From IMG/VR virus record IMGVR_UViG_3300016471_001035, positions 32,001 through 96,000 of that record: DNA of 64,000 nucleotides, one strand, 5' to 3'. Below the pieces are notes generated by a model. It worked only from the letters and a program-made list of their open reading frames with translations. It did no database searches and had not been told where the DNA came from. Source of the DNA: a virus. This document shows positions 1,938 to 60,106 of the stretch, piece after piece (positions within the stretch are counted from its first letter, which is position 1; each line of letters starts with the position of its first letter). A program made the translations under genes and the position numbers.

Positions 1938-1966
1938 TTGATCTTATTATTATTTACATTTATAAT
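1938..1966 (+). promoter_or_regulatory. sigma70-type promoter, predicted leaderless start of the dpdA-queF operon
   Basis: TTGATC(1938)-N17-TATAAT(1961)-AGTATT-ATG(1973). Confidence 0.75.
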
Positions 1967-1972
1967 AGTATT

Positions 1973-2803
1973 ATGCTAATGAAAGTATCCCATGAATCTC
2001 CTGTGTCTATTCTAGAATATTCAAAGGAATATAATGATTTTGACTACTGCTTAGTACATCTATTACATCAAAACGCAGGTTCTCCGCAACAATTAGCATA
2101 TAATAATTATTATTCCCATGCCAGATCACTCTATAATAGAGAGGTATTATTAGATAACTCTATTTTCGAGCTCGGAAAAGCTTTCGATCCAGAACAATTT
2201 TATAAATCTGCAATGCTCATCAAACCGAATATGTTTATTGTTCCCGATGTTTTAGAGGATGCAGACGGTACTGTTGAGAGTTGGAACAATTTTGAAGCTA
2301 AGACCGATGATTTAAAGAAAAGTTTTTATACAAAATCGATAGGAGCTGTGCAAGGTAAAACATGGAAAGACTTAGTAGATTGTTATAAGTTTATGTCAGA
2401 TAACGCTGATATGATTGCTATTAGCTTTGATTTTAGTTATTATCAAGCTATAGGGTATGGTAAAACGGAGCTTGAAAGATTCTGCTCAGGTCGTCAGCGC
2501 TTTATTGCGGATTTAATAAATAGTAATGTATGGGATTGGAATAAGCCTCATCATCTTTTAGGATGTTCCCTAGCTAAAGAATTTAGATATTATGTCGATA
2601 GAAACGTTTACAATATTGTCTCTTGTGATACTAGTAATCCTATTGTATGTGCAATATTCGGATTAAAGTATGATGCAGATTACGGTTTAAGTAATAAACC
2701 GAAAGTTAAGTTAGCTGATCTTATTTCTCACGAATTTACTGATGAGCAACTTGATTTAGTAAAATACAATACATCGATGTTTAAAAAAATTATTAGAAGA
2801 TGA
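1973..2803 (+). CDS. dpdA: DpdA-family (TGT-fold, probably DpdA3-like) 7-deazaguanine transglycosylase/ribosyltransferase
   Basis: TGT-like motifs VLLDNSIFELG, IVPDVL, GAVQG, HHLLGC, SCDTSNP; first gene of an operon ending in queF; start moved to 1973 from promoter geometry. Confidence 0.75.
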   Translation: MLMKVSHESPVSILEYSKEYNDFDYCLVHLLHQNAGSPQQLAYNNYYSHARSLYNREVLLDNSIFELGKAFDPEQFYKSAMLIKPNMFIVPDVLEDADGTVESWNNFEAKTDDLKKSFYTKSIGAVQGKTWKDLVDCYKFMSDNADMIAISFDFSYYQAIGYGKTELERFCSGRQRFIADLINSNVWDWNKPHHLLGCSLAKEFRYYVDRNVYNIVSCDTSNPIVCAIFGLKYDADYGLSNKPKVKLADLISHEFTDEQLDLVKYNTSMFKKIIRR

Positions 2804-3369
2804 GACCCTGGGTAACATTTTTTTCGCAAACTGGTACAGAGATTAATAATTTATGTAATGCTTTAGGTATATATCCGGACGCAATTATTACAAACAAACA
2901 GACTACTGATGATATTAATAAGGATTTTTTAACCATTACAACCTTTAGAACACAAAAGCTTAATAGAACAATTTTGTTCACTCTCCCTCACAAACCTAGC
3001 TTAGAGAATTATTTTGAGGTTTTAAGTAAATTTAATAACCCAGTTATAACGTTACATGGCTATTTGAGAATAATACCTAAAGAGATTTGTGAGAAGTATG
3101 AAATCTATAACCTACATCCCGGTTTAATTGACAAATACCCGTCTTTAAAAGGATTTAATCCTCAAGAGAGAGCTTTTATTGGTGGCTATAAGCATGCAGG
3201 ATGTGTTATTCACAAAGTAGTACCTGAAGTTGATGCGGGTGAAATTCTCTTAAGCCAGGGAACAAGTATAGAGGGGTTGACACTTCCACAAGTATACAGC
3301 AAATTACATAATGTTGCATTTGACTTGTGGAAAAGCTTATTTCAAGGGTATAAAATTTTAGGAAAATAA
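2800..3369 (+). CDS. PurN-like formyltransferase (DpdN-like, candidate preQ1 N-formyltransferase)
   Basis: FSQTGT, LHGYLRII, NLHPG, GCVIHKV..EVDAGEI motifs; ATGA-coupled to dpdA. Confidence 0.85.
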   Translation: MRPWVTFFSQTGTEINNLCNALGIYPDAIITNKQTTDDINKDFLTITTFRTQKLNRTILFTLPHKPSLENYFEVLSKFNNPVITLHGYLRIIPKEICEKYEIYNLHPGLIDKYPSLKGFNPQERAFIGGYKHAGCVIHKVVPEVDAGEILLSQGTSIEGLTLPQVYSKLHNVAFDLWKSLFQGYKILGK

Positions 3370-4340
3370 TGGATATATCTTTACATTACGAAAACGTTTT
3401 TTTAAAACCTAATTTTAATAATGTTAAAACTAGGGCAGAGATAAACACTGAAGTAAATTTTTTAGGTAAAGTTTTTCGCTTGCCTGTAATTCCTGCAAAT
3501 ATGAAATGCTGTGTTGATTTTGATATTTGTAACATTTTAGACTCTAGAAATTATTTTTACGTGATGCATCGGTTTGATCATGATATCTTTGGTTTTGTAA
3601 AAGATGCTAATGAAGTGTCATTTAACAATGTTTCAATAAGTGTAGGAATACAAAATAAAGATAAAGCATTAATAACTAATTTAGCTAATAGTAAGTTTAG
3701 AGTAGATTTTATTACTATTGATGTTGCGCACGGTCATCATTCAAAAGTTGCTGATCAAGTAAAATTTATTAAAGATACTCTTCCTAAGACAAGAGTTATT
3801 GCAGGTAATGTTGCTACGCGAAATGGTGTTGAATATTTAGCTGTTGCAGGAGCTGATGCTGTTAAGGTGGGTATTGGTGGGGGGTATGCCTGCACTACAA
3901 AGGATAAAACAGGATTTACCTATCCCATGTTTAGTTGTGTTATGGAATGCGCTAGCACTGAGGCGTCAAATTTTGACATACCTGTTATAGCAGATGGCGG
4001 TGTAAGATGTAACGGAGATATAGCTAAAGCTTTAGTAGCCGGTGCTAAGATGGTTATGTGTGGCTCTATATTTGCAGCCTGCTCTGATAGCCCTGCACCG
4101 GTTGTTAAGGATGTTTCTGGAAGGCGCTTTAAGCAGTACTATGGTTCTGCTAGCGTACATAATAAGATGGATAAAAAGAATATAGAAGGTACAATGAAGC
4201 TTATGGAAACAGATTCATTTACTTATGAAGAAAAAATATTAGAAATAACTCAAGACCTGCAAAGCGCTATAAGTTACGCCGGAGGTTGCAATCTTAATGT
4301 TCTTAATTTAAGTAAAGTTGGTTACGGGGTAAGATTATGA
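3369..4340 (+). CDS. guaC: GMP reductase (Bacillus-type)
   Basis: [51 protein letters not shown]. Confidence 0.9.
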
Positions 4341-4684
4341 ATCCAGACGATGTAGTTAAAGCAGTTGAATCAGCTTACCCTGAGACTTGCGAAGAGTTTA
4401 AAAAGATTCAACAAGAGCAATATGAAGTATTTTGTAAAAAACAATTTGACTACGGTCCTCATAATATTAGCTTGGGGTCAGATTTACATAAAAAAGAGGA
4501 CATTAATGCCTCTATTTCAGCAATAGTCGTACGTCTTAATGATAAGATACAGAGATTGATTAACTTAGTTTTGCGCAAAAAAACTTTTGAATCTGCAAAT
4601 GAACCGATTTTTGACGCTTTTGGTGACACATCAGTTTATTGTATTATAGCAGAAATTGTTAAGAGAAAGAAATGGTGTAAGTAA
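4337..4684 (+). CDS. DUF1599 / nucleotide-modification-associated domain 1 protein (all-alpha NTP-PPase-like)
   Basis: KKQFDYGPHNI...VRLNDKIQRL...FGDTSVYCII pattern. Confidence 0.75.
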   Translation: MNPDDVVKAVESAYPETCEEFKKIQQEQYEVFCKKQFDYGPHNISLGSDLHKKEDINASISAIVVRLNDKIQRLINLVLRKKTFESANEPIFDAFGDTSVYCIIAEIVKRKKWCK

Positions 4685-6306: not shown

Positions 6307-6672
6307 TTAACCGTTTAAATTCCAGAGTCTCTGTTTTTCAGGGCCTACTGATTCGTAACCATTGAGAGTTAATGTTTGCGCAGTTGTACCGGTATCTACC
6401 GTGAACGTATAGGATGTACCGTCATTTAATAATAATGCCATTACTGTACCATCATAATTATCGGCAACATTTAAATTTGCAGTATTTCCGCCTACTGATA
6501 ATGTAATATTAACATCAGCTAATGTAGGGGTGACAGCATTGAAAAGAACACCCTTTACATTGGTGCTTAATGAATTAGCTGTAACACCGTTATTAACCGT
6601 TGACAGGTTAAATGATGTCGGAAATGTATCAGCCGGATCGGCTACTATATTTGAAAATACTTGTAAAGGCAT
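6307..6672 (-). CDS. small beta-rich virion protein (possible head decoration)
   Basis: T/N/V-rich ORF downstream of MCP; start at 6672 follows AATAAATA-N5. Confidence 0.6.
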   Translation of the reverse strand: MPLQVFSNIVADPADTFPTSFNLSTVNNGVTANSLSTNVKGVLFNAVTPTLADVNITLSVGGNTANLNVADNYDGTVMALLLNDGTSYTFTVDTGTTAQTLTLNGYESVGPEKQRLWNLNG

Positions 6673-6717
6673 ATAATTATTTATTCTTTGCAGGCAATTT
6701 TTTTGTATGAGAACAAT

Positions 6718-6747
6718 AAAAAAGGGCACCGCAAGATGCCCTTTTTT
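6718..6747. terminator. intrinsic terminator after the major capsid gene (bidirectional form)
   Basis: AAAAAAGGGCA-CCGCAAGA-TGCCCTTTTTT. Confidence 0.85.
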
Positions 6748-9295: not shown

Positions 9296-9466
9296 TTAAA
9301 AAATTTTTTCTTTTAGAGAATCATTGATCTTTGATTTAATCTTAGAGTCAATGACGCTCTGTAAGTATTTATTAGCTTCAGAATAATTTTTCTGAGAAAT
9401 TGACTTTAAAAACCCAATAATTTCTTTATTTTCATTTATTTTTGAGTTTTTGTTAGCCTTTGTCAT
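9296..9466 (-). CDS. small prohead core protein (gp67/68-like)
   Basis: helical FLKSISQKNYSEANKYL within head cluster; start at 9466 follows TAAATA-N5. Confidence 0.55.
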   Translation of the reverse strand: MTKANKNSKINENKEIIGFLKSISQKNYSEANKYLQSVIDSKIKSKINDSLKEKIF

Positions 9467-9513
9467 AGAATTATTTATTTTGCTCTTGTTATTTTTTTTA
9501 ATACTTTTCATAA

Positions 9514-10185
9514 TTAAGCACTTCTTAGAAACTTAAAAAACGACAAAATTTGCTCTTTGAGATAGGATTGAACGTCCTTTCTAGGAAGATTTTTAATTGA
9601 GTTTTCGAATGCATCAAATATTTCTTCAAGCTCACCCCTAGTATTAAGAATAAATTGCTTGCTCTCAAGAATTCCATTTACAAAAGCCTTTGGACACGAC
9701 GGATCAGCTACACAATCAATAGCTATTAATCTCATATCTGTTACTCTATTAACACCATTATTCTCTTCATTTAACTTACCTAAAGCTCTGCTTGACATAC
9801 CAACCTTTACACCGTCATTGATAAGATTGCGAACTATTTGACCCATGGGGGTCGAGAGAACTTGTGATTTACCAAATACGTGGTTACCTTCGAATTTAAG
9901 ATTTGTTACTAAATGGCATGCTCTTTCGAGATTAACTTCTGCTGATGTAGGATGATTTAACTCTCCCATAGCTCTATTTGTTGTGACCATTTCTTTTACA
10001 TATCTATCGACTTCACGGTGCATATCTTCTTTTTCATAGATGCGTTGATTTTTATTAACTTCATTACAAACCATATACGGGCCTTGAATAAAAAGCTTTG
10101 CAGGTTCTTTAGGGTTTTTTTCCTCTAAAATATATTCAAACTGCTCCTCAGAAGCAGGTGTTTCGACTAAAAGACGAAGCGCCAT
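9514..10185 (-). CDS. gp21: prohead protease gp21
   Basis: NKNQRIY, AMGELNHP, TPMGQIV, GMSSRALG, DCVADPS. Confidence 0.95.
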   Translation of the reverse strand: MALRLLVETPASEEQFEYILEEKNPKEPAKLFIQGPYMVCNEVNKNQRIYEKEDMHREVDRYVKEMVTTNRAMGELNHPTSAEVNLERACHLVTNLKFEGNHVFGKSQVLSTPMGQIVRNLINDGVKVGMSSRALGKLNEENNGVNRVTDMRLIAIDCVADPSCPKAFVNGILESKQFILNTRGELEEIFDAFENSIKNLPRKDVQSYLKEQILSFFKFLRSA

Positions 10186-10186
10186 A

Positions 10187-10648
10187 TTAATATTTATTTA
10201 GACCAAGTTCTTTTTCTGTTAATATTAAGAACTTATAATTCCTTTGGTCGCACCATTTTTTAGCAGCAGCCCACTTAGCCATATTTTGTATATATCTCTT
10301 GTTTTCGTAAATTAAAGTACTATTTTTCTTTTTTCCTGGAACCGGTGCAACTACTTGTGTTGATGGTTTAATTTCTATTATATATTTGTTTATATTATTA
10401 TTTTCTTTAATTGCAATAATACCATCTGTATAGTATCTATGAACTTTGCTATCAAGAGGGTTTAAATACGGGATTACCACAGCTTCGCTTGCCCATTCAA
10501 CTACATTTTCATTTTCATCGCACCATCTAAAAAATCTCAGCTCCCACCCAGATCTATAAACCGGTGGAGTTCTCCCAACATATTTGTTACTATTTCTTGG
10601 ACGAAACAACCCTTGTCTAAATTTATCGTTTTTATTGAGAGGTATCAT
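10187..10648 (-). CDS. gp4: head completion nuclease gp4 (TnsA-like)
   Basis: YRSGWE, WASE, HRYYTD, IEIKP, KWAAA, ILTEKEL. Confidence 0.92.
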   Translation of the reverse strand: MIPLNKNDKFRQGLFRPRNSNKYVGRTPPVYRSGWELRFFRWCDENENVVEWASEAVVIPYLNPLDSKVHRYYTDGIIAIKENNNINKYIIEIKPSTQVVAPVPGKKKNSTLIYENKRYIQNMAKWAAAKKWCDQRNYKFLILTEKELGLNKY

Positions 10649-11724
10649 TATCCAACAAAGAACTGTGGAGGGGCAGCATCACCGAACCCAGGTGCACTTT
10701 CGTATAATTTTTTTTCTAGTTCTTCTTTTTCTCTCAATCCTTGGGAGAGCAAATCATTATAGTTTATAGAACCACCACCAAACATTGTTGTCCCCGTATA
10801 TTTACCTCTAACGTTACCTATAGCTATTTTACTTAAAGCTAAAGCATATTGATAGACCCAAGGCTCTTTAATAATATCTTTAAGTCGTTTTTCTACGTAA
10901 CAGCCAATGATACCATAAAATCTTGATCCTGAACCCGGAGTGCGGGGTTGGGGGTAAAAGGTTAGGTATTGAGTTCTATCGTCGAACGTAAAGTATCTTC
11001 TAATAGCTAAAAGCTTTTCTCTTGTTTCTAGCCAATCTTTAAGCACATACCAGCTTATTAAATCAAACCCATAATTACCCATTGCATAGCTAAAATATGT
11101 TTGTTGAGCTAATGTTTGCTCGATAGTGAATAGCGTGTTAACACCGGTAGAGGAGCCTTCTTCAAAATCAATTATGTCTACTACTTTTCTATAATCCATT
11201 ACATCGTAATCAAAACTATTATTAAATTTTACCTGTGAATTAGAAGATGGTTTAAAATAATCACCTAAAACACCATTAAAATTAATAACTGAAAGATAAT
11301 TTGTTTGTGTTAATATTTGATTTTCAAAAATACCATCTTTATATGTTGATGACAGGGTTGTCGATGTTGTAAAGTAGCTAGAGGGTATAGATGATGTTGC
11401 AACAAAAACGGTTGGTGAAGGTTCAATTGTTTTATTAAAATACGGTGTAATAGTATAAAGCAGATCTAATTTTAAGCCTTTGTTAGATTCATACAAATCA
11501 GAATCAAATACAAGATATTCTTCTGTATACCCTGCAAATTTAGCAAACATTTCACAGGCTATAGAAATATTTTCAAATAGTTGATCATGATGAATTTCTA
11601 AATTCACCATTGGTGCACCTAGTGCTCTAGAAATTCTATCACCTAATCTATTGAATGAATCTATTTTACTGTTAAGATTAGTGCTTTGAAAAGCTGTAAT
11701 TGGTGTTATAGCAGAGCAATCCAT
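10648..11724 (-). CDS. gp13: neck protein gp13-like
   Basis: RALGAPMVNLEI, WVYQYALALSK, GKY..TMFGGGSIN, C-terminal PPQFFVG. Confidence 0.88.
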   Translation of the reverse strand: MDCSAITPITAFQSTNLNSKIDSFNRLGDRISRALGAPMVNLEIHHDQLFENISIACEMFAKFAGYTEEYLVFDSDLYESNKGLKLDLLYTITPYFNKTIEPSPTVFVATSSIPSSYFTTSTTLSSTYKDGIFENQILTQTNYLSVINFNGVLGDYFKPSSNSQVKFNNSFDYDVMDYRKVVDIIDFEEGSSTGVNTLFTIEQTLAQQTYFSYAMGNYGFDLISWYVLKDWLETREKLLAIRRYFTFDDRTQYLTFYPQPRTPGSGSRFYGIIGCYVEKRLKDIIKEPWVYQYALALSKIAIGNVRGKYTGTTMFGGGSINYNDLLSQGLREKEELEKKLYESAPGFGDAAPPQFFVG

Positions 11725-11749
11725 AATAATATTTATGTTATGCTGCTAA

Positions 11750-13552
11750 TTAAGCTGCAGGTGCAGCTCCGGCGGCACCTCCTTGAGCTGGCGTACCGCC
11801 TGCGGTGGCTTCACCGCCCCCGGCGGCAGGGGCTTCAGCAGCACCACCTCCAGCCGCAGCAGGGCCTGGGCCAAACTCCGGAGGAGTTCTAGTAGCAGAA
11901 GCACCACCACCCATACCACCTCCGCCCCCAGCTTCTTGACCGGCTGCTCCTGGTGTTGTCGCGCCAAGCTCTCTCCAATTTGGCCCATTATTAGTAATTT
12001 GATCTAATTCCCATAAAAATTCTCTATCTTTTCTTAAAAATTGTCTATTAGCCATAATATCTACCTCTGACCAGCCAAGATATTTCTTCTGTGCGAACGT
12101 TTTTGAAACTAAATCACTCTGAGTAATGTTATTAAAGTTCTCTGCTTTAAGCTGGAATTTTTGATTTTCTCTTAATTCATAGAAATTAGTAGGTACATTA
12201 AACATTAAATCAATGTCTGTTTCGCGGAGCTTATATTCTTCCCAAATTTTTCTTAATTTAAGATGAGTAATAAATCCATTTTTTAATCCAGCCGCAAAAC
12301 GTTGCTGCTGGCGAATTATAAATCTTGCAAATTTAAGCTCTTCTCTAAGAATATCTGCACCATCTTTAAATACGTCTTCAACATTTAATCGGGTAACTGG
12401 AACTTTTAAAGACTTATAAAGCTTTTGTACAAAGTACATAAGGTCGGTTAGCTCGCCCAAATTTTGACCTCCAGGTAATTGAACCACTTCAGTACCGGTA
12501 GAGCCGGTGCGCTTTGCAAACCAAAAACTATCTAACATACTTTGAGGATTAAATTTTTGTACAGAAGCACCTTGGTCTGCATCATAAGTTCTTCGTGACC
12601 AATAATTTTGCATTAGCTTACGGAGGTATGCTTCTGCTTTAGGAGGAGCCATATTACCAACATCAACATTGAATACAAGTCTTTCTGGGGCTCTTACAAG
12701 CCTATAAATAACAATTGCATCTTCTATTAGAGATAGTTGTCTGTAAGCTCTACGAGCGTTTTCAATAAAAGGTAATCTGACTGTTTTTGTTTCATTCCAA
12801 ATACCAGAGTTAATATAAGTAACTTGATTTATATCCATCGGAACTAATTCAACCTTAGCAATTTTTCCAGGATTCTTAGCATCATAAATATTTTTTCTTA
12901 AAAGATAACCTCTTACAATTTGATTTTGTACATTTTCAAAAACAGGGTCTATAACATCTGAAGGAACAGTTACCACACCTAAAATACCTTCTTCAGGATA
13001 TTTTTTATGAATAATATGTTCCCAATATAGCTCAGCATCAACTAATAATTGTCTAAGATATTCCCACCCTTTGTTTTCTAAATCAAAAAAGCCAATATAT
13101 TTTTGAAATTCTTTTTTTAATTTCTCTTTTTGATCTTCTGATATTGTAGCGGTTTTAAAAAATATTTTTACTATATCACCATTATCATCTTTATTAATAA
13201 ATTCATCGCAAATCTCATCCAACGCATCAGCTACTTCAGCAAACGCAGCCATTACTCTATAGTCCATTAACCTACGGCCTTTATCAGGCTGAAGATTAGC
13301 GTACATAAAGTTGTGGTAATCTTTATTTTGCACTACATTAGCATAAAGATCATCAGTAAAGCTTAAAGATGAAGAAACCGACTGACGAGCAAGGGCCTCT
13401 TCTCTTTGTGTTCCTTTATTAAAGAATTCAGCGTACTTAGGATTAAGCTTGTTTATTTGATCTTCAATACCAAGAGACTGGTAAGGCAGTTTTGAAGATA
13501 TAAACTTTACCAGCTCTCTTCCGAACGTACTCTCTCTATTTGGGTCTGCCAT
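11750..13552 (-). CDS. gp20: portal protein gp20 with G/A/P-rich C-terminal tail
   Basis: IEDAIVIYRLVRAPERLVFNVDVGNM, LPGGQNLGE, ILREELKF. Confidence 0.96.
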   Translation of the reverse strand: MADPNRESTFGRELVKFISSKLPYQSLGIEDQINKLNPKYAEFFNKGTQREEALARQSVSSSLSFTDDLYANVVQNKDYHNFMYANLQPDKGRRLMDYRVMAAFAEVADALDEICDEFINKDDNGDIVKIFFKTATISEDQKEKLKKEFQKYIGFFDLENKGWEYLRQLLVDAELYWEHIIHKKYPEEGILGVVTVPSDVIDPVFENVQNQIVRGYLLRKNIYDAKNPGKIAKVELVPMDINQVTYINSGIWNETKTVRLPFIENARRAYRQLSLIEDAIVIYRLVRAPERLVFNVDVGNMAPPKAEAYLRKLMQNYWSRRTYDADQGASVQKFNPQSMLDSFWFAKRTGSTGTEVVQLPGGQNLGELTDLMYFVQKLYKSLKVPVTRLNVEDVFKDGADILREELKFARFIIRQQQRFAAGLKNGFITHLKLRKIWEEYKLRETDIDLMFNVPTNFYELRENQKFQLKAENFNNITQSDLVSKTFAQKKYLGWSEVDIMANRQFLRKDREFLWELDQITNNGPNWRELGATTPGAAGQEAGGGGGMGGGASATRTPPEFGPGPAAAGGGAAEAPAAGGGEATAGGTPAQGGAAGAAPAA

Positions 13553-49795: not shown

Positions 49796-49802
49796 TATAG
49801 CT

Positions 49803-50486
49803 ATTTGCGGTATATTTGGTTCTAAAGACTTTACAACTTATGTAAAGCTTTATAAGAGCAACAAGAAACGTGGTACGTTTTCTTACGGTGGTCTACTGAT
49901 CGGCTCACATATTCACGCTGTTCTCAAGACACCAGGCACTGCCAACCTATCCAATAAGCTAGTTATAGAGTACGGTAAAAAGAGGAGAAACATTACAGAT
50001 TTTGATGTTTTTTTAGGACACACTCAAGCCCCTACATCTGAAAAAAGAACATTTTCACCAAATACATCTCATCCTTTTCAACATAAAGAATGGTTAATTG
50101 CACATAACGGGGTTTTAACAAACGATAAGGAATTAAAAAAGCTTATTAAAGATAAAAAATCTTATAACGTTGTAGATTCATCTGTTATTGCACCGCTTAT
50201 AGCTATGTTTGTTAAAGAGCTAGATGATGAGGTTGCAGGTGTTTGCAAAGCACTATCGCTACTTAAAGGTACGTTTGGCCTTTGGATATATAATCAAAAA
50301 ACTGGTAATATTTTTCTCGCACGATCCGGCAGTACAGTATTCGCAGATTTTCTATCAAACGACTTTTCTTCTTTAAAGGAAAGCGGGTTTGTCCCTCTTG
50401 ACGAAGGTACACTATACCTATTAACTAAGGAAGGGTTAACCTCCGTAGGCGTATTTAAGACTAACTCTCCGTTTTTTACACAATGA
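49803..50486 (+). CDS. class-II (Ntn) glutamine amidotransferase with ATT start codon
   Basis: ATT-TGC-GGT-ATA-TTT-GGT = (M)CGIFG; open frame through GHTQAPT, HPF, HNG, VDS into the track ORF at 50205 (offset 402 nt); 227 aa. Confidence 0.88.
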   Translation: MCGIFGSKDFTTYVKLYKSNKKRGTFSYGGLLIGSHIHAVLKTPGTANLSNKLVIEYGKKRRNITDFDVFLGHTQAPTSEKRTFSPNTSHPFQHKEWLIAHNGVLTNDKELKKLIKDKKSYNVVDSSVIAPLIAMFVKELDDEVAGVCKALSLLKGTFGLWIYNQKTGNIFLARSGSTVFADFLSNDFSSLKESGFVPLDEGTLYLLTKEGLTSVGVFKTNSPFFTQ

Positions 50487-51175
50487 AAACAGCATTTTAT
50501 TTTTGTACAAGAAATTCTAAAGCGCAAGATACTTTTGCATTTAAATCTCTTCAAAGAATTAAACTAGCTACTCTATGGGAGTTTACTATAATTTATAAGG
50601 AAAATAATAATGACGGATTAAGCTTAAATTATAATAGTGTTTTAGAAAAGCATGGTAAAGATTATGATAACATAGTTTTTATACACGATGATGTTTATAT
50701 TGACGATCTTGGAGTGGTAAATAAGCTAGAAAAAGCTCATAATGATTTTGATATTGTAGGTCTTGCTGGGGGGTTAAATCCTGAAATTAAAGCACCCGCC
50801 CTTTGGCATTTAATGTGTGGGGGGTTTAACAGCGGTAATTTGAGAGGAGCAGTAGCCCATAAATTTAATAATGATCAAATTTTTATGACCAATTTTGGCC
50901 CCACACCCGCTAGAGTTGCTATTTTAGATGGACTATTCCTAAGCGTTAAAACCGAATGTTTTTTAAAAAAGGAATTTAAATTTAATGAAAATTATAACTT
51001 CCATCATTATGATATTGCCACCTGTATTGATGCTAATAAAAACAAATTAAAGTTAGGGGTCGTCCCTATATGGGTAGTACATAATTCACCCGGTCTTCTT
51101 AATATCAACGATGCTACATTTAGCGCTAGTCAATCTATATTTTTAAGAGAGTATAGCAGTATTGATTCTGTATAA
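50483..51175 (+). CDS. GT-A glycosyltransferase-like protein
   Basis: SLNYN, FIHDDV, VGLAG, ILDGLFL, FHHYDI; ATGA-coupled to the amidotransferase. Confidence 0.8.
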   Translation: MKTAFYFCTRNSKAQDTFAFKSLQRIKLATLWEFTIIYKENNNDGLSLNYNSVLEKHGKDYDNIVFIHDDVYIDDLGVVNKLEKAHNDFDIVGLAGGLNPEIKAPALWHLMCGGFNSGNLRGAVAHKFNNDQIFMTNFGPTPARVAILDGLFLSVKTECFLKKEFKFNENYNFHHYDIATCIDANKNKLKLGVVPIWVVHNSPGLLNINDATFSASQSIFLREYSSIDSV

Positions 51176-51195
51176 TTTTAATATATCATAAGAGA

Positions 51196-52524
51196 ATGGT
51201 TAAATTAGATCTAGATTTTTTTGAGCTTATTATTGCTTATAAATCATTAACTGATGAAACCTATTTAGCTTCTGTTGTCGACCATATAAAGCCTATTTTC
51301 TTTAAAAATAAAGATATTAAAGTTATTTTTACAATAATAAGAGATTTTTATGAAAAAAGAAATGCATGTCCTACCTTAACAGAAATAAAATCGTATTTAA
51401 CTAACGATGAGCTTAAAAATTCATTTAAGAATGTTGTAACACAGTTTAATAATTTAGATAAAAATTTTAACACAGATGAATTATCTGCTAATACAGAAAC
51501 TTTTATAAAAGAAAAATCCGTATACCATACAATGATGGATGTAGTAGATGATATCAACAAAAATAGTGTCGACACTTCTAAAATTTTAGCTAAATTTGAA
51601 AAAGCTTGTAGTATATCTTTAACCACTGAAATAGGGTTAGATTTGTATGCTAATTTAGATAGAGTAATTGAAGACCTGCATTCTTCAGAAAAATATATTC
51701 CTTCTAAATGGAAATGGCTTGATGATAAAATAGGAGGTGGGTTTCTAGAATCTGGTAGAGCACTCTATTTGTTTGCAGGCGAAACAAATATTGGTAAAAG
51801 TATATTTTTAGGAAATGTAGCTATTAACATAGCTGAGCAAGGAAAGACTGTATTGCTTGTTTCTTTAGAAATGCCAGAAATAATTTATGCTAAAAGACTC
51901 GTTTCAAGTGTATCTAAAATACCATTAAGCCAATTAAAAATAGAGTCTGATTCTTTAAAAAATCAAATTAGCGAGTATTGTATTGAAAATCCAAACGCAA
52001 AAATTATTATAAAGGAGTTTCCTCCCGCAACAATTACGCCCAACCATTTAAAGGCTTTTATTAAAAAATTAATACAAAAAGGTATTAAGATAGATGCCAT
52101 AGTTTTGGATTACGTAAATCTATTACATTCGTCTATGGGTGATTCAAGCTATGAGCGTGTTAAGATTTGTACTGAACAATTAAGAGCTTTATCATATGGG
52201 TTTAATTGCCCTGTTATATCCGCTACTCAGTTAAACCGTGAGGGGTATGAAATAACTGACCCAGGTTTAAAGACAATATCAGAAAGTATAGGGTTGGCTA
52301 TGACAGGTGACGTTATTATGAGTATTTGGCAAGAAGATACAGATAAAGAACTTGGCATTATTAAAATGGGATTAATGAAAAACAGGTTTGGACCTAATTA
52401 CGGTCATTGTGCAATGAGGATAGATTATTCAACACTTACTATTACAGAAGACGAGCATATAAATGACACAGAAGCAAGCACTTCTTCAATTAGTACGTTG
52501 ACAAAATTAGCTATCGACAATTGA
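51196..52524 (+). CDS. gp41: replicative helicase gp41
   Basis: GETNIGKS, SLEM, IKEFP, LDYVNL, SATQLNR, SES, KNRFG. Confidence 0.95.
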   Translation: MVKLDLDFFELIIAYKSLTDETYLASVVDHIKPIFFKNKDIKVIFTIIRDFYEKRNACPTLTEIKSYLTNDELKNSFKNVVTQFNNLDKNFNTDELSANTETFIKEKSVYHTMMDVVDDINKNSVDTSKILAKFEKACSISLTTEIGLDLYANLDRVIEDLHSSEKYIPSKWKWLDDKIGGGFLESGRALYLFAGETNIGKSIFLGNVAINIAEQGKTVLLVSLEMPEIIYAKRLVSSVSKIPLSQLKIESDSLKNQISEYCIENPNAKIIIKEFPPATITPNHLKAFIKKLIQKGIKIDAIVLDYVNLLHSSMGDSSYERVKICTEQLRALSYGFNCPVISATQLNREGYEITDPGLKTISESIGLAMTGDVIMSIWQEDTDKELGIIKMGLMKNRFGPNYGHCAMRIDYSTLTITEDEHINDTEASTSSISTLTKLAIDN

Positions 52525-53055: not shown

Positions 53056-53693
53056 TTACCGAGTTTGAAAAGCACATTTATAATTCTTATTTAAAAGTCA
53101 CTAGATCAAATAGTGAACTACCTTACAAACTTAGAAAAAATTTTGAAAAAGTTGACGATAAGCTTTATGTAGCCTTAAAAAAGCTTTCTTCTTTTTTTAA
53201 GAGATACCCCCATATAAAAATAGAGGATTTTTTTCGCGCGCCTTATTCTCTTTACCCTGACGAAAAATATTTTCCAATAGAATATTTTTATTCACTTAAA
53301 GCTATAAAGTCCTATACTTTGTTTAATAAGCAACAGACAAATCTTGATCCGGATAGCGATGAACAGCTTAATAGCATTAAAAATTCATTAATTTTTATAA
53401 AAAGTTTTTGTAGAGATAATAATTTAAATGTAGAAAATTATATTTTTCACAAAACAAAAAATGAATATTCATTTATTTTGCACTTAAAAGAACATAATGT
53501 CAACGTATATACTTTATTAGGATTTAATAACTTTGAGAAAATTCTTAGAGGCTGTAACCCCGATATTACAAAATTTATTATTGGTGAGGATATATACAAC
53601 AACATCCAGGTATTTAGAACACGTCTTTATAATTCAAAAAAAGCAAGTAAAGTTGTCGAATATGGACTTAAAAAAATATTAGAAAAAGCTTGA
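53052..53693 (+). CDS. putative helicase loader (gp59-like)
   Basis: basic helical protein directly upstream of gp32 as in T4; TTGA overlap with bS21; sequence resemblance weak. Confidence 0.5.
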   Translation: MITEFEKHIYNSYLKVTRSNSELPYKLRKNFEKVDDKLYVALKKLSSFFKRYPHIKIEDFFRAPYSLYPDEKYFPIEYFYSLKAIKSYTLFNKQQTNLDPDSDEQLNSIKNSLIFIKSFCRDNNLNVENYIFHKTKNEYSFILHLKEHNVNVYTLLGFNNFEKILRGCNPDITKFIIGEDIYNNIQVFRTRLYNSKKASKVVEYGLKKILEKA

Positions 53694-53723
53694 TTAAGCA
53701 AATAAAGTTATTATTATTATTCT

Positions 53724-54578
53724 ATGAGTACATTTACCACATCGATGTTTGAAAGTATTAAGGGCGCTTTGACGAAAAATAACGAATCTACTGCTTCGAA
53801 GGTTAAAGACTATCTTCGCTGTGAAGCCGGCAACACATATACAGTTAGACTTATTCCTAATGTAAAAGACCCATCTAAGACGTTTTTTCACTATTATTCA
53901 TACGGCTGGAATAGTTTTGCTACTGGTGAGCTTATTACTGCAGTAAGCCCTACTACATGGAATCAGCGTGATCCTATTGCTGAAGAAAGGTATCGTATTT
54001 TGAGAACAGGTACAGAGAAAGAGAAGGAAAAGGCTTTGGCTATTAAGCGTAGAGAAAATTGGTTAGTTAATGTTTATATTATTAACGATCCCGTAAACTC
54101 TGATAATAATGGGAAGGTAAAGCTCTTACGTTTTGGTCGCCAGCTACATAAAATTATTATGGATGCTATTGAAGGTGAAGAAGCCGCAGAGCTTGGTCCT
54201 CGTATATTTGACCTATCTCCTAAAGGCTGTAACCTTAGAATTAAAGTTGAGAAGCAGGGTGACTACCCCACATACGTTTCATCTAAGTTTTCTACTCCTA
54301 AGGAAATAGAGGGGTTGGACGAAGATGATTATAAGAAAGTTTATAACAGCTCATTTGATCTTGAGTCATATGTTAGTGTTAAGAGCTACGAAGAGCTTAA
54401 AAATCTACTTGATGCGCATTACTATGGCACCAAGGATGTTGAAGAGGACGGCGCTGTTACTGCTGAAGTTAAAGCACCTAAGCCTTCAGTTAATGTAACT
54501 ATTAATTCTAAGAAGGCTGAGACGAAAGAGACTACAGCCGACGATCAGCAAATAGACGAATTACTTAAAGATCTATAA
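53724..54578 (+). CDS. gp32: single-stranded DNA-binding protein gp32-like
   Basis: TVRLIP, DPI, NVYIINDP..NNGKV, IFDL, YVSSKF, acidic tail DDQQIDELLKDL. Confidence 0.9.
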   Translation: MSTFTTSMFESIKGALTKNNESTASKVKDYLRCEAGNTYTVRLIPNVKDPSKTFFHYYSYGWNSFATGELITAVSPTTWNQRDPIAEERYRILRTGTEKEKEKALAIKRRENWLVNVYIINDPVNSDNNGKVKLLRFGRQLHKIIMDAIEGEEAAELGPRIFDLSPKGCNLRIKVEKQGDYPTYVSSKFSTPKEIEGLDEDDYKKVYNSSFDLESYVSVKSYEELKNLLDAHYYGTKDVEEDGAVTAEVKAPKPSVNVTINSKKAETKETTADDQQIDELLKDL

Positions 54579-54976
54579 TGGAAGATACTTTTAGAGAGTT
54601 AACTCCAGAAGAAATTAAACTGGCTACTATCCAGTTTATGGGCCAGCACCTAACTGGAGAAATGAAAGAACTCAATAAAAATATTATCGGCGAAAGCGCT
54701 ACACTTAGATCTTTATCCATAGACCCCTTAAAAGTTATTCAAACAATTCCAGGGGATAAACGTCCATATGCTACAACTGTTAATGCTGGGATAAATATTG
54801 CTCCTAACGCTATTCATCATCCTATTCCAGTACAGCAATCTCAACAACCCACAGTAGATCCTAATCAACTTGAATTTGATTTTGGTAAGTCAAATTTAGC
54901 AAATTCTATTTTAGATCGGTTAGATTCGTTGAGCTCAAAATTAGATAAAGTTATAGCCTTACTTAAAAAAGATTGA
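54578..54976 (+). CDS. hypothetical protein
   Basis: TAATG-coupled; DPNQLEFDF motif and terminal coiled coil. Confidence 0.7.
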   Translation: MEDTFRELTPEEIKLATIQFMGQHLTGEMKELNKNIIGESATLRSLSIDPLKVIQTIPGDKRPYATTVNAGINIAPNAIHHPIPVQQSQQPTVDPNQLEFDFGKSNLANSILDRLDSLSSKLDKVIALLKKD

Positions 54977-55006
54977 TAATTAGTAGTTATATCTTATTAT
55001 AAATGT

Positions 55007-55738
55007 GTGAATTTAAGTATAAAAGATAGAGATAACTTTTTAAATAATTTTGTAATTCCGTTAAGTAAGATAACAGACAGCGCAGTTATAAAAATTGCTC
55101 CAGGCAAGATAACATCTTTAATTTCCACAAGCGATAATACAATTATTGTTAATTCAGAGTATAACGATGATAGTATAAAAGCAGTTAAAACTTTAAACGT
55201 ACCTGACTTAAAGAAGCTTTGCAGAGTTATTTCATGTATAGATGAAACAACTTTTAATTTAGATATATCATCAAATTTTATAGGCTACGATTCTCGTAAT
55301 GTTAGGTTTAAGTATCATTTGTATGACGATGGCATTATTGCATCACCTAAGCTTAGTATAGATAAACTTAATTCTTTAGAATTTGATGGTAAGTTCACCC
55401 TACCTCTCGCCTCTGTCATAAACCTTATCAAAGGCAGCTCCATAAGCACCGAAACAAATAAGATTTATTTGTCTGTTAAAGACAAGCAGATATTTGGTGA
55501 ATTAACAGATAAGACTAGATCTAATATTGATTCATATGGTATTAATATTTCTGATGATTATAGCGGAACTCAGTTTGCAGTTGCTATACCCTTGAATTTT
55601 GAGATATTTAGAATAATTTCTTCTATGAGATTTAAGGAGCTTCAAGCAAACCTAATAACAAAAATGGGCGTATTAACGTTAGACTTAAACTTAGATAATT
55701 CTAAATTTAAGTTTGTTATTTCTGCTCTAGCCAACTAA
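55007..55738 (+). CDS. gp45: sliding clamp gp45-like
   Basis: 243 aa two-domain pattern, LNVPDLKKL, FKYHL, C-terminal FVISAL; replication context. Confidence 0.7.
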   Translation: MNLSIKDRDNFLNNFVIPLSKITDSAVIKIAPGKITSLISTSDNTIIVNSEYNDDSIKAVKTLNVPDLKKLCRVISCIDETTFNLDISSNFIGYDSRNVRFKYHLYDDGIIASPKLSIDKLNSLEFDGKFTLPLASVINLIKGSSISTETNKIYLSVKDKQIFGELTDKTRSNIDSYGINISDDYSGTQFAVAIPLNFEIFRIISSMRFKELQANLITKMGVLTLDLNLDNSKFKFVISALAN

Positions 55739-56101
55739 ATGAGCAAAAATAAAATTAAAACACCTAGCTATTTTGTAAAGCGTTTAAGAGACAACGGCTT
55801 TATAGCTATTAAGTTATTTGGGGTATTTGCTAAGCAAGATCCAAGACAATGGGTAGTTCTTGTCAATCCTAGTGAGGCATCGGTTCTTGTTACCTGTTAT
55901 TTAAACAAGGATAATCTCAATGAAGTTCTATTTGAATTTAATGACGGTGATAGACATATACCTAGAAATTTTTCTATTAAAACTGATTCTATTGAAGTAA
56001 TTATAGACTATTTGCTTAGACACGGTGTTTCTAATAATAAAGATTACCCAGGCCGCGATAGATATTTGTCAAAAAGATTAAATACTTATGATGAAAAATA
56101 A
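55739..56101 (+). CDS. hypothetical protein
   Basis: 120-aa ORF abutting the clamp gene. Confidence 0.7.
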   Translation: MSKNKIKTPSYFVKRLRDNGFIAIKLFGVFAKQDPRQWVVLVNPSEASVLVTCYLNKDNLNEVLFEFNDGDRHIPRNFSIKTDSIEVIIDYLLRHGVSNNKDYPGRDRYLSKRLNTYDEK

Positions 56102-57274: not shown

Positions 57275-57564
57275 AATTTTCATTTTTAAATAAGCACCCC
57301 AAAAAGCGTATTATATATGCTATTACTGGGGGCTATTATTTAGGCGAATTATTTGTTTTTATGGAAAAGACAGATGAAAAATATATATTTCTCTCCCTAC
57401 CTGAAATGCACATTAGAGAGGTGCCAATCGATAAATTTGAGTTTGGATTGAACCAAAACATTATAGATATAGTTAAAAAAATACCAAATTTTGTTTATAA
57501 AGTATGTAAAGCGCAATATACCAAAAATAAAACACGTGACTTACAGTCTTTAAAGGATAAATAG
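57271..57564 (+). CDS. hypothetical protein
   Basis: ATGA-coupled ORF. Confidence 0.65.
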   Translation: MKFSFLNKHPKKRIIYAITGGYYLGELFVFMEKTDEKYIFLSLPEMHIREVPIDKFEFGLNQNIIDIVKKIPNFVYKVCKAQYTKNKTRDLQSLKDK

Positions 57565-57568
57565 TTAT

Positions 57569-57757
57569 ATGGATTTTATTTCACCAAAACCAATCGTGTC
57601 CCCTATTAGCGGTCAAGTAGTAAGACCGGTCTTAAAAACGTATGTTCGTGAAGGCAAAGAAATTGTAGAAGCTGAATATATCGACCCAGCTAGTGGTTCT
57701 TTTATCCGTAAAGGTATTGTTTCTGTAAGAGATTTAAAGAAACCCTCCGAAAAATAA
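57569..57757 (+). CDS. 62-aa protein resembling a Cys-less zinc ribbon
   Basis: SPISG ... DPASG knuckles; TAAATA-N5-ATG. Confidence 0.65.
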   Translation: MDFISPKPIVSPISGQVVRPVLKTYVREGKEIVEAEYIDPASGSFIRKGIVSVRDLKKPSEK

Positions 57758-57793
57758 TCTTGTAAGTTAGTTGTTTTGTACTATAATTAAAAT

Positions 57794-58831
57794 GTGTTAA
57801 TACCGACCGAATATATACTGCAAAAATTTTATCAGTACGCTGGCTATCCTCAATATAAAAAGAGTAGCAACACTTATATTGCAGGGTGCCCTATATGCAG
57901 AGAAGGAAAATCGTGGGGTAAAAAAAGAAGATGCATTTTTATTGTTGAAGACAATGCTATATGCTGTCATAATTGTGGTTGGTATAGTGATGCGGTAAAA
58001 TGGATTTGCGAGGTATCGGGGCTAAATTTTTCTGAAGTACTTAATGAATCTAAAAATTTTGATATCTTACCATTAAACGCATATACTGACGAAACTAAAC
58101 AGGAAAAGCCTAAACCAACACATACACTCCCTACCGACTGTATAAATTTATTTGATAATAATCAAATTGAATTTTATAAAGATAATAAGATTGTTAATGA
58201 CGCTCTTTCTATTGTTATTAATAGAAGACTAGATAGAGCAGTTAATAGACCAGATACATTGTATGTTACCTGTAAAGATAAAATTCATAAAAACAGAATT
58301 GTAATACCTTTTTATGACGATAATAATAATAATATTATTTTTTATCAAACAAGGCTTATTTATAAAAACGATGAAAAGCTGTATCCTAAGTATCTAAGCA
58401 AGGTAAATGGAGAGAAATCCCTATACAATATCAATAAAATAGATCCGCAATTAGAATATATTTTTATTTTTGAAGGCCCTATCGATTCTTTTTTCGTAAA
58501 AAACGGTACTGCTGTTGCAGGTATTCAAGAGAATAGTAGCAATACATTTTCAACACTCCAGGAACAACAACTCATACCTTTTAAGTTTTTTAAAAAGATA
58601 TGGGTGTTAGACAGCCAGTGGGCTGATACAGCAAGTAGAAATAAGACGAGTAAGTTAATTGAAAATGAAGAAACTGTTTTTATATGGCCAGAGGATTTAG
58701 GTAAAAAATATAAAGATATAAATGAGTACTGTGTTAGTAATAAATTAGACAGTATTGATCCAGAGTTTTTAATTAATAATTCTTATTCAGGAATTAAAGC
58801 CAAGCTTTTAATGTCTATTATCTGTCGTTAG
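57794..58831 (+). CDS. gp61: DNA primase gp61
   Basis: CPIC..CHNCG zinc finger, RIVIPF, FEGPIDS, KDINE; TTGTAA-N16-TATAAT-N6-GTG. Confidence 0.93.
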   Translation: MLIPTEYILQKFYQYAGYPQYKKSSNTYIAGCPICREGKSWGKKRRCIFIVEDNAICCHNCGWYSDAVKWICEVSGLNFSEVLNESKNFDILPLNAYTDETKQEKPKPTHTLPTDCINLFDNNQIEFYKDNKIVNDALSIVINRRLDRAVNRPDTLYVTCKDKIHKNRIVIPFYDDNNNNIIFYQTRLIYKNDEKLYPKYLSKVNGEKSLYNINKIDPQLEYIFIFEGPIDSFFVKNGTAVAGIQENSSNTFSTLQEQQLIPFKFFKKIWVLDSQWADTASRNKTSKLIENEETVFIWPEDLGKKYKDINEYCVSNKLDSIDPEFLINNSYSGIKAKLLMSIICR

Positions 58832-59225
58832 CAGAAATTAAATAGCCTTTAAGAGATTCGCTCAAAGAACTAAGCTCTGCTGCTAGTCTTGCTATTTTCT
58901 TTTTCTCGCTTCTAGCAATATCTTCAAAAATAGAATCACAAGCTGCTGTGTGAAGCTGTACCTGCATGCTGCTAGCATCTGTACTATTTAAAAACTTAAT
59001 AAACTCATCTATTTGAGTAATCCAGCCTTTAAGCTTGGAAATCTGCTCTGCTTTTTTATGATCTTGTACTTGCTCTCTTCCTCCCTGAACGTCAAAATCT
59101 TCAGGCTTAGCAGTATCAAGCGTAGATGCCATAGCTTCTTTATCGGTTTGAGGAGCTACAGCTGGAGCAGGTTCCGTCTCATCAGCTTCTAATAATGTGG
59201 TAAACTTACTAACAAAAGAACTCAT
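58818..59225 (-). CDS. hypothetical late protein
   Basis: MSSFVSKFTTLLEAD; TAAATA-N5-ATG. Confidence 0.75.
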   Translation of the reverse strand: MSSFVSKFTTLLEADETEPAPAVAPQTDKEAMASTLDTAKPEDFDVQGGREQVQDHKKAEQISKLKGWITQIDEFIKFLNSTDASSMQVQLHTAACDSIFEDIARSEKKKIARLAAELSSLSESLKGYLISANDR

Positions 59226-59255
59226 ATTATTATTTATTATTGAATAAATATTTTT

Positions 59256-59642
59256 GTGAGAAAAAAGTTAGTTTTTGAAGATATTTTAAATTACAATAAA
59301 TGGGTTTCTGGTATTGCTTCAAGAGAGCTTGCCTCACAAAGAGTTAGCTTAAGAGATTTATTTAACAACCCTTATGTCGATCAAAATCCTAATGATGCTA
59401 GAGCAGAGCCAGTTATGCCATATCCATTGCAAAGCGTGGTACCGCAGATAGGGGACCTTTACATTTATGCATGTAATACTAAAGATTTGTTTAAATCATC
59501 ATTATCAAATCCTCTTGTTGCAAAAAATAAAATTGCCAAAGAAACTGTATTAGATATTGTAAGTAAATTAGATGCTGTTATTGACATTATTAAAGGTATA
59601 ATTGAACAAGCCAATAAACCGGTTGCAAAAAAAGTTAAATAA
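59256..59642 (+). CDS. hypothetical late protein
   Basis: TAAATA-N5-GTG, divergent from 59225. Confidence 0.7.
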   Translation: MRKKLVFEDILNYNKWVSGIASRELASQRVSLRDLFNNPYVDQNPNDARAEPVMPYPLQSVVPQIGDLYIYACNTKDLFKSSLSNPLVAKNKIAKETVLDIVSKLDAVIDIIKGIIEQANKPVAKKVK

Positions 59643-59656
59643 GTTATAATATATTG

Positions 59657-60106
59657 ATGGTAAAGAAAGTAATATCACAATTACTACCTCTTTTAGGCGT
59701 TGCAACGCTTACAAGTTTTTTGCTAGCAACCTGGGGCGTTAATTATTTTATTGGTGCCTTAGTTGGCATTTTAATTCAATTTGTTGCCTTTTATTCATTC
59801 AAAAGCATTCTTATAGCAGTTGTTGCTTTGAGAAATAAAAAACTAGATAATGAGAGAATAAAAGAATTATCTTACCAAGGACTAGAGGTGGTCTGCCCTT
59901 GTTTTAAACAAATTAAGGAATTTGTTCCAATAAAGCTAAATATAGCAAACTACTATAAATGCAGTGAATGTAAAAAAACTATTGGAGTCGTAATTACACC
60001 GGAAACTGCAATTGTAACAGAGCCCGCTGATTCAAGCCAAGAAGCAGTAAATAAACTGCTAGCACAAGGCATTCTGAATGTATCTAAACCAAATGCAAAT
60101 ACCTAA
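59657..60106 (+). CDS. two-TM membrane protein with C-terminal zinc ribbon
   Basis: two hydrophobic helices then CPC...CSEC; TTGCAA-N16-TATAAT-N6-ATG. Confidence 0.75.
   Translation: MVKKVISQLLPLLGVATLTSFLLATWGVNYFIGALVGILIQFVAFYSFKSILIAVVALRNKKLDNERIKELSYQGLEVVCPCFKQIKEFVPIKLNIANYYKCSECKKTIGVVITPETAIVTEPADSSQEAVNKLLAQGILNVSKPNANT

Follow-up and report, generated by a model that had tools for sequence, protein, structure and literature searches.

How does a phage begin to translate its genes when its promoters run straight into the start codons? The question is raised by a stretch of 64,000 nucleotides (the window), which is bases 32,001 to 96,000 of one 139,594-bp viral contig, IMG/VR record IMGVR_UViG_3300016471_001035. 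Many of its genes are directly preceded by one of two motifs. The early type is TTGnnn-N16/17-TAnnnT-N6/7-start and the late type is TAAATA-N5-start, where N gives the number of intervening nucleotides. A sequence-only reading of the window had listed 14 early-type and 15 late-type sites. It had proposed that nearly all mRNAs of this phage are leaderless, with their 5' ends on the start codon, and that internal genes are translated by coupling. We consider it probable that the first cistrons of these units are leaderless and that the genes downstream are coupled to them. The promoter-start layout fits about half of all genes and approximately three quarters of the uncoupled ones.

Judged by its proteins, the phage is a myophage of the T4 type, though a very distant one. 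G+C makes up 33% of the contig, which CheckV rates as about 66% complete. The capsid, portal, adaptor, and helicase genes match T4-type PHROGs. The DNA polymerase and portal are just ~30% identical to their counterparts in cyanophages and in Pelagibacter phage HTVC008M, which is the closest cultured relative. IMG/VR holds more than 500 related contigs.

All 29 listed sites read as described. TAAATA-N5-ATG or TAAATA-N5-GTG was present at every late site and TTGnnn-N16/17-TAnnnT-N6 at the early ones, with N7 at 28210. The deviant hexamers were also confirmed: 16019 and 18138 have no TTG in the -35 element, and the -10 element is GATAAT at 29650 and CATAAT at 35220. Units absent from the first list were found at 19878(-), 22121(+), 24576(+), 41238(+), 49754(-), and 56091(+) (Table 1). 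The early logo is TTGAyt-N16/17-TAtaAT, with the -10 element ending 6, sometimes 7, nt before the start codon. The late logo has an invariant TAAATA core, an AT-rich spacer, and no -35 element; A, not TA, is preferred at the predicted -13/-12 positions.

In histograms of motif-to-start distance, the fixed spacings were strongly enriched over the AT-rich background. One count began from the motif, used no gene calls, and required that the start open an open reading frame (ORF) of at least 50 to 60 codons. Across the whole contig, TAAATA was followed by such a start 33 to 37 times at N5 and 15 times at N6, with 0 to 5 cases at nearly all other offsets and a maximum of 7. TATAAT peaked at N6, with 18 cases. 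A second count began from our own codon-usage gene calls, with unadjusted longest-ORF starts. TAAATA-N5 preceded 26/182 of these starts compared with 5/11,614 non-gene start triplets (binomial p, 6e-57), and TTG-N16-18-TAnnnT-N6 preceded 22/182 compared with 22/11,614 (p, 1e-32). TAAATA at N5/N6 was observed before 40/182 starts, whereas 1000 dinucleotide-preserving shuffles of the upstream 50 nt gave 1.09±1.06 (maximum, 5). For TTG-N16-18-TAnnnT at N6/N7, the numbers were 23/182 and 0.70±0.86 (maximum, 5). The upstream profile of all genes has a G signal at -35 and an A/T signal at -12 to -6, and G is below background at the Shine-Dalgarno (SD) position (-14 to -5). Generic scans were uninformative here. 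A sigma70 scan returned 106 promoter-like sites where 87±11 were expected, which is no excess in AT-rich DNA, and terminator-like sites were not enriched (9, compared with 9.9±3.2 in shuffles). Only position relative to starts carries information.

The spacing is also conserved. Among distinct relatives, the adaptor gene has N5/N6 in 54/62 and gene 9514 in 46/48. For the early type, N6/N7 was found in 43/56 for gp32, down to 57% amino acid identity, in 29/46 for the 51196 gene (labelled helicase), and in 25/48 for the clamp gene; the 57794 gene (labelled primase) has N6 in 28/45. The spacing held across relatives while the spacer and upstream flanks drifted, and the region before the box is unconserved and unconstrained. 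In one relative (L004), the adaptor start is shifted by two codons and the box has shifted along with it. Codons after the start vary synonymously, as in ATGGAT/GAC-TGC/TGT of the adaptor gene and ATGAGTACA of gp32. In 731 kb of related loci (31-41% G+C), TAAATA preceded a long ORF 206 times at N5 and 52 times at N6. Other offsets reached at most 42 anywhere and at most 28 within 22 nt.

What would read these motifs? Because a -35 element at 16 to 17 bp makes sense only in DNA, the early motifs are DNA-level promoters, of the host's sigma70 type. The late box appears to be the core of the T4 late promoter, TATAAATA at -13 to -6, which in T4 works with the gp55 sigma factor, the gp33 co-activator, and the gp45 clamp. 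The phage has a gp55-type late sigma gene (37758..38360, +; start at 37734 or 37758), which matches T4 gp55 (E, 1.2e-9), phrog_234 (2.7e-27), and PDB entry 7D7C chain F (5.5e-8). Its sliding clamp gene (55007-55738) matches the HTVC008M clamp (1.9e-6), and a gp44 clamp-loader homologue lies past the window end (81091-82029 in window numbering; 2.5e-32). T4 and this phage therefore both have gp55, clamp, and clamp-loader homologues, whereas gp33 was undetected in the phage. The gp62 protein was likewise undetected (phmmer, E<=1). Queries with T4 gp33, gp62, RegA, MotA, AsiA, DsbA, Alc, and RpbA and with HTVC008M RegA gave no phmmer match at E<=1.

The early class covers replication and nucleotide metabolism. 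Its genes encode the polymerase, the single-stranded DNA-binding protein (SSB), the clamp, and a UvsW-type helicase, together with uvsX, primase, dpdA, and folE on unchecked labels. The late-type genes include the adaptor and other virion-module genes. The split of the two motif classes by function is the one seen in T4. The T4 late system has the same TAAATA core, no -35 element, an AT-rich downstream spacer, and virion genes on both strands (PMC2988020, PMC7892883). However, no N5 peak was seen in the T4 late region, where the boxes precede SD-led starts by a variable ~20-33 nt. In the phage, the box ends exactly 5-6 nt before the start, there is no SD, and the first two positions of the octamer are degenerate.

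A 98-amino-acid ORF (52550-52846, +) lies upstream of the genes for a bS21 homologue, a 218-amino-acid protein, and gp32. Its C-terminus is hydrophobic and ends in KKALFL. The T4 gene order is 33-59-32, and T4 gp33 has a clamp-binding tail that ends in LDFLL. By synteny and C-terminus, without a sequence match, this ORF is a possible candidate for a gp33 analogue.

The geometry predicts where transcripts would begin. The -10 element of a sigma70 promoter spans -12 to -7. The T4 late box occupies -13 to -6 (PMC2988020). Therefore, N6 in the early class and N5 in the late class would both put +1 on the first base of the start codon. Position -1 is T in 25/35 and 20/31 of the exact-motif units. 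This matches the preference of RNA polymerase for a pyrimidine at -1 and a purine at +1. Behind exact motifs (n=81), there were 65 ATG starts, 16 GTG starts, and no TTG starts. GTG is more frequent in the N5 class (12/35) than in coupled genes (4/59), and it is conserved in 43/49 orthologues of gene 13567 and 35/45 orthologues of the 57794 gene. In mycobacteria, experiments have defined a rule for leaderless translation: a 5' ATG or GTG is both required and enough, TTG does not work, and ATT initiates solely when an SD precedes it (PMC4633059). Start-codon usage in the phage matches this rule. An enrichment of GCN at the second codon of late units was discounted as a leaderless signal, since paralogous fibre cassettes inflate it.

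The ATT part of the rule also has a counterpart. An Ntn-type glutamine amidotransferase gene (49756-50486, +) starts with ATT at 49803 (I-C-G-I-F-G...), with AGGAGG upstream. The start is fixed by the catalytic Cys (Cys2), which the ATT immediately precedes. Standard ORF calling hides this gene and leaves a 450-nt "gap." Its promoter region has the form TTGAAT-N16-TATAAT-N4/5-AGGAGG-N7/8-ATT in the phage and in 20 distinct relatives. ATG starts are found in more distant orthologues that share the promoter, and most of these have no SD, with the -10 element at N6-N11. The late class has a similar case. Gene 13567 follows TAAATA-N5/6-GTG without an SD in 42/49 distinct relatives, and in three or four relatives, among them L050, L059, and L061, it reads TAAATA-N5/6-AGGAGG-N7-9-ATT. 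At both loci, the ATT start occurs only with AGGAGG, which is placed exactly at the predicted +1. This suggests that starts unable to act as 5'-terminal initiators are accompanied by an SD, at the closest position that would still be transcribed. These ATT/SD switches are few independent events, perhaps two to four, with both promoter classes represented.

How general is the layout? We sorted 184 genes, letting a start shift to a motif-linked codon within the first 35 codons. This gave 61 late-type (52 exact and 9 with one mismatch), 31 early-type, 59 coupled, and 33 other genes; the 89 genes of the window alone divided into 27, 15, 28, and 19. Near-universal use of leaderless mRNAs, as first claimed, was too strong: 92/184 genes, and 42/89 in the window, have an abutting promoter, and some of these are one-mismatch calls. 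Several of the other genes have relaxed versions, with a CATAAT or GATAAT -10 element or with TAAATA at N8-N15. Internal genes do use the overlaps that had been proposed for them. Among the 59 coupled genes (gap of <=5 nt), 22 have the 4-nt overlap of the ATGA/GTGA type, 11 have the 1-nt overlap of the TAATG type, and 14 lie 0-5 nt behind the upstream gene.

By anti-SD pairing, an SD of -8 kcal/mol or stronger precedes 0/61 late-type genes and 1.7% of controls. The earlier statement that none has an SD stands for the listed promoter-abutted genes and fails for the window as a whole, where the exceptions are a purine tract before the capsid gene, the AGGAGG of 49803, and gene 61060-61791. SDs of that strength occur in 7/59 coupled genes, 61060-61791 among them. 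Therefore, the host ribosome clearly reads SDs. GGAGG or AAGGAG at normal spacing precedes gene 61060-61791 and several early genes of the left arm. What survives of the proposal is its core, leaderless initiation plus coupling, which agrees with the spacing, its conservation, the gp55 and clamp genes, the ATG/GTG-only starts, T at -1, and the SD that accompanies ATT.

Taken together, the following mechanism is probable. The gp55-type sigma factor and the sliding clamp presumably read the TAAATA box. The first cistron of each unit would be made from a leaderless mRNA with its 5' end on the ATG or GTG, and ribosomes would presumably recognise a 5'-terminal AUG or GUG as they do in actinobacteria and Thermus. 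Downstream cistrons would be translated by termination-reinitiation over 4-nt or 1-nt overlaps or gaps of 0-5 nt. The SD would be kept only where the leaderless route fails or falls short: at an ATT start, at the major capsid gene, and at a few internal genes. We infer the 5' ends and the mode of ribosome recruitment from this geometry.

Several observations weigh against leaderless first cistrons. The major capsid gene (6807-8330, -), which encodes the most abundant late protein, does not use the fused layout. Its 77-nt spacer (8331-8407) is conserved in about 40 distinct relatives and consists of a covarying GC hairpin, CTGAAyAG, an AT-rich spacer of variable length, and an invariant palindromic GGTCGACA. 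An SD-like purine tract (AAGGA/GGAG/GAAAG) lies 10-14 nt before the ATG. Therefore, the most expressed late gene is leadered. The capsid leader might have a role in processing or stabilisation, or it might be an operator. TAAATA stands further off, at N7-N15, in the portal gene and in about 10 late genes besides; for the portal, N11 (N5-N15 in relatives) implies a short leader, predicted to be ~6 nt. Among the one-mismatch or relaxed calls, several are probably false (18960, 20560, 35127, 52550, 54578, 60783, 5392, 17170, and 23777). Many late boxes also lie within operons (the gap is <=5 nt for 8 of them and 6-30 nt for 18), and therefore read-through transcripts must exist too. The co-activator gp33 was undetected by phmmer or PDB match, and a literature search found no transcription start site data for relatives. 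Finally, the competence of the host for leaderless AUG, and especially GUG, initiation is assumed, and E. coli-type ribosomes translate leaderless mRNAs poorly (PMC4633059).

Some of these points would also fit another explanation, in which the promoters fire at start codons but read-through polycistronic mRNAs give most of the protein, by termination-reinitiation or 70S scanning, and the spacing reflects compaction. The 26 late units with same-strand gaps of <=30 nt are promoters inside operons, terminator-like sites show no enrichment, the capsid gene is leadered, and translation of leaderless mRNAs in E. coli-type systems is poor. However, 26 units head divergent transcription units and have no upstream same-strand cistron to couple to. 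At 63699 and 6672, a terminator, the box, and the start follow one another directly; between the terminator hairpin and the 63699 GTG, there is room for the TAAATA box only. Compaction alone also leaves the ATG/GTG-only starts, T at -1, and the restriction of the SD to ATT unexplained. Nor does it explain an exact N5/N6 where spacer lengths upstream of the box vary freely among relatives. We consider this explanation unlikely.

It is also conceivable that TAAATA acts in RNA, as an A/U-rich translational enhancer or SD substitute within longer leaders. It lies 5-6 nt from the start, about as far as an SD would, in a genome that makes hardly any use of SDs, and the phage encodes a bS21 homologue. 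However, the box is limited to late/virion genes, and replication genes carry -35/-10 promoters at the equivalent position. It matches the T4 late core in a phage with a gp55 homologue, and it is absent before coupled internal genes. The divergent spacers 30323/30355 and 59225/59256 contain two back-to-back units and nothing else, and the former has no room for any leader. These 30- to 31-bp spacers and the adjacent terminators leave no place for an upstream promoter. Furthermore, the ATT-start orthologues insert a true SD downstream of the box, at N5/6. An RNA element is therefore very improbable.

A slightly poorer candidate still is mis-assignment of the starts, with transcription beginning near the annotated ATG and translation at a downstream SD-led codon. 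It could draw on the 7/29 sites that rest on an internal start chosen to fit the motif (1973, 6672, 9466, 14379, 26515, 28161, and 59657). Three of these have external support: 6672 because the alternative GTG at 6729 falls within the terminator hairpin, and 9466 and 14379 because both are conserved motif-linked starts in relatives. None of the 92 promoter-abutted genes has a downstream in-frame ATG or GTG (codons 4-40) with an SD of -8 kcal/mol or stronger. Conservation, with synonymous changes, covers the first codons that follow the start but not the region before the box. That AT-rich intergenic DNA produced the pattern by chance is hardly credible: the genome has a low G+C content and the generic sigma70 scan had no excess, but position-specific enrichment of 30- to 40-fold over dinucleotide shuffles and non-gene start triplets, and conservation in relatives, refute it.

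Table 1. Promoter-start units and associated features, in window coordinates.
Feature	Position	Strand	Remark
Early unit TTGATC-N17-TATAAT-N6-ATG, dpdA-like gene (earlier label)	1938..1975	+	
Late unit TAAATA-N5-ATG, start 6672	6670..6683	-	Terminator hairpin 45 nt upstream
Terminator-like hairpin and T-run upstream of the 6672 unit	6718..6747	-	Includes alternative GTG 6729
Late unit TAAATA-N5-ATG, start 9466	9464..9477	-	
Late unit TAAATA-N5-ATG, start 10185	10183..10196	-	N5 kept in 44/48 distinct relatives
Late unit TAAATA-N5-ATG, head-tail adaptor gene	11722..11735	-	62 distinct relatives: N5 41, N6 13
Portal gene start, TAAATA at N11	13550..13569	-	Relatives N5-N15
Late unit TAAATA-N5-GTG, gene 13567	14377..14390	-	GTG kept in 43/49 relatives
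Early unit (CTTTAA)-N17-TATAAT-N6-GTG, helicase gene	16017..16054	-	Deviant -35
Early unit (CTGGAA)-N17-TATAAT-N6-ATG	18136..18173	-	Deviant -35
Late unit TAAATA-N5-ATG	19876..19889	-	Newly found
Late unit TAAATA-N6-ATG, divergent pair	22109..22123	+	Newly found
Late unit TAAATA-N7-ATG, divergent pair	24563..24578	+	Newly found
Late unit TAAATA-N5-ATG	26513..26526	-	
Late unit TAAATA-N5-GTG	28159..28172	-	Back to back with 28210 early unit
Early unit TTGATC-N16-TATAAT-N7-ATG, folE (earlier label)	28175..28212	+	
Late unit TAAATA-N5-GTG	28871..28884	+	
Late unit TAAATA-N5-GTG	29602..29615	-	
Early unit TTGATT-N16-GATAAT-N6-ATG	29616..29652	+	
31-bp divergent spacer, two back-to-back TAAATA-N5-ATG units	30321..30357		Starts 30323 (-) and 30355 (+)
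Early unit TTGAAA-N16-CATAAT-N6-ATG	35218..35254	-	
Early unit TTGATT-N17-TAATAT-N5-ATG	41204..41240	+	Newly found
Early unit TTGTAC-N16-TATAAT-N6-GTG, DNA polymerase	42635..42671	+	
Early unit TTGATT-N16-TAATAT-N6-ATG	45254..45290	+	
Early unit TTGTTT-N16-TATACT-N6-ATG, uvsX (earlier label)	45653..45689	+	Label unchecked
Late unit TAAATA-N7-ATG	49752..49767	-	Newly found
Exception TTGAAT-N16-TATAAT-N5-AGGAGG-N8-ATT, Ntn amidotransferase	49756..49805	+	
Early unit TTGATT-N16-TATCAT-N6-ATG, labelled helicase	51162..51198	+	Label unchecked; N6 in 26/46 relatives
Early unit TTGATT-N16-TATTAT-N6-ATG, gp32 SSB	53690..53726	+	
Early unit TTGATA-N16-TATTAT-N6-GTG, sliding clamp gene 55007-55738	54973..55009	+	
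Late unit TAAATA-N6-ATG	56079..56093	+	Newly found
Late unit TAAATA-N5-ATG	57558..57571	+	
Early unit TTGTAA-N16-TATAAT-N6-GTG, labelled primase	57760..57796	+	Label unchecked
30-bp divergent spacer, two TAAATA-N5 units	59223..59258		Starts 59225 (-, ATG) and 59256 (+, GTG)
Early unit TTGCAA-N16-TATAAT-N6-ATG	59623..59659	+	
Late unit TAAATA-N5-GTG, start 63699	63697..63710	-	
Terminator hairpin, 9-bp stem and T-run	63721..63744	-	Ends 21 nt before 63699 GTG

Leaderless expression of this kind has precedents. In the Thermus phages phiYS40 and Lalka27a, most transcripts start on the A or G of the initiator codon, as mapped experimentally (bioRxiv 10.64898/2026.04.20.719267). There, as predicted from sequence here, +1 falls on the initiator in more than one temporal class. 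However, those phages are unrelated, and their late promoters are of a TAGGGT type, in contrast to the gp55-type box. Their Deinococcus-Thermus host is itself rich in leaderless genes. Genome-wide leaderless expression is thus known in Thermus phages, the only ones in which it has been mapped so far; it would be new for T4-type phages with gp55 promoters. Literature searches on leaderless mRNAs in T4-like phages, cyanophages, or HTVC008M yielded reference-list mentions only, and no paper that links such expression to T4-type phages or gp55 promoters.

A -10 element that adjoins an ORF is an accepted leaderless signature (PMC3160421, PMC12340547). In leaderless genes of Actinobacteria and Deinococcus-Thermus, the SD is lacking and TANNNT ends ~6-7 nt upstream of the start (PMC3160421, PMC12340547). 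These genes are alike also in having a 5' ATG or GTG, not TTG, and ATT only behind an SD (PMC4633059). However, they make up 20-33% of cellular genes, compared with ~50% predicted in the phage genome, and the phage adds a second, phage-sigma promoter class. Among phage mRNAs, lambda cI from PRM likewise starts with the AUG and undergoes translation without an SD (PMC10491246), but it comes from a single regulatory gene in an otherwise SD-led genome.

HTVC008M is similarly T4-like, has ~33% G+C, and encodes bS21 and gp55. A minority of its genes, only a few, have TAAATA-N5-ATG or TATAAT-N6-ATG. Otherwise the phage is mostly SD-led: clear AAGGAG SDs, with late boxes upstream, are found at the capsid gene and many other structural genes. 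The fused layout is thus present, in a minority of genes, in a culturable SAR11 phage. In its 50-100 kb segment (L083), at 25,500-25,560, a terminator hairpin lies directly before TAAATA-N5-ATG of a gene at record position 75559.

T4 is the textbook model of phage gene expression, and its relatives are assumed to be SD-led behind their late promoters. In a large uncultured freshwater clade, both promoter classes now appear to be joined to the start codon. Gene starts and temporal classes in metagenomic phages of the clade could then be called by a simple sequence rule, and the layout would offer compact natural promoter/start modules. It also predicts hosts with ribosomes that are efficient on 5'-terminal AUG and GUG, which is a clue to the host. 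Other leads did not point to a host. The top DNA polymerase match is Phage C48C1, a Kyanoviridae record without an annotated host; the early promoters are canonical sigma70-type, not Bacteroidota-type; and WhiB, sought as a host clue, was not found in the phage. The sole tRNA, a tRNA-Met(CAT) left of the window (contig 10751-10825), resembles an elongator or Ile2 tRNA. It was rejected as an initiator because of its paired positions 1-72 and an anticodon stem that lacks a G-C triplet.

The bS21 homologue (52843-53055, +; PF01165, 40.7 bits with a cut-off of 27) is ATGA-coupled and lies in the replication module. It had no close relative among 185,579 species genomes, and the Atlas clusters nearest to it are viral. 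No other transcription or translation factor turned up when 10 small proteins of the replication module were scanned against PHROGs and Pfam. The bS21 protein sits beside the anti-SD, and both leaderless and AUU initiation are disfavoured by IF3. The bS21 protein supports the anti-SD, and E. coli ribosomes without it favour the leaderless lambda cI mRNA (PMC10491246). A speculative and rather unlikely idea is that the phage has a translation regime of its own, with leaderless AUG/GUG, SD-free reinitiation, and AUU starts, and with bS21 biasing ribosomes of the infected cell to 70S-type initiation on phage mRNAs, at the expense of SD-led host mRNAs. If so, a very abundant lake-phage clade would take over host translation via an mRNA architecture that the host does not share. 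The link between leaderless initiation, AUU starts, and phage-encoded bS21 is testable.

Two loci might use more than one start. At 9296-9511 (-), two isoforms are possible. Translation from ATG 9511 would give the long form, which some relatives conserve and which is coupled to the gene upstream. ATG 9466, preceded by TAAATA-N5 and conserved in most relatives, would give the short form. Left of the window, at contig 3,400-9,000, there are tandem small early cassettes of the form TTGACTAAA...TATAAT-AGGAGT-ATGATG, eight of which read TATAAT-AGGAGT-ATGATG or close variants. The AGGAG fills the discriminator, upstream of the predicted +1, and therefore would be present in read-through RNA only. 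These cassettes may have dual initiation, leaderless at the first ATG and SD-led at the second in read-through RNA.

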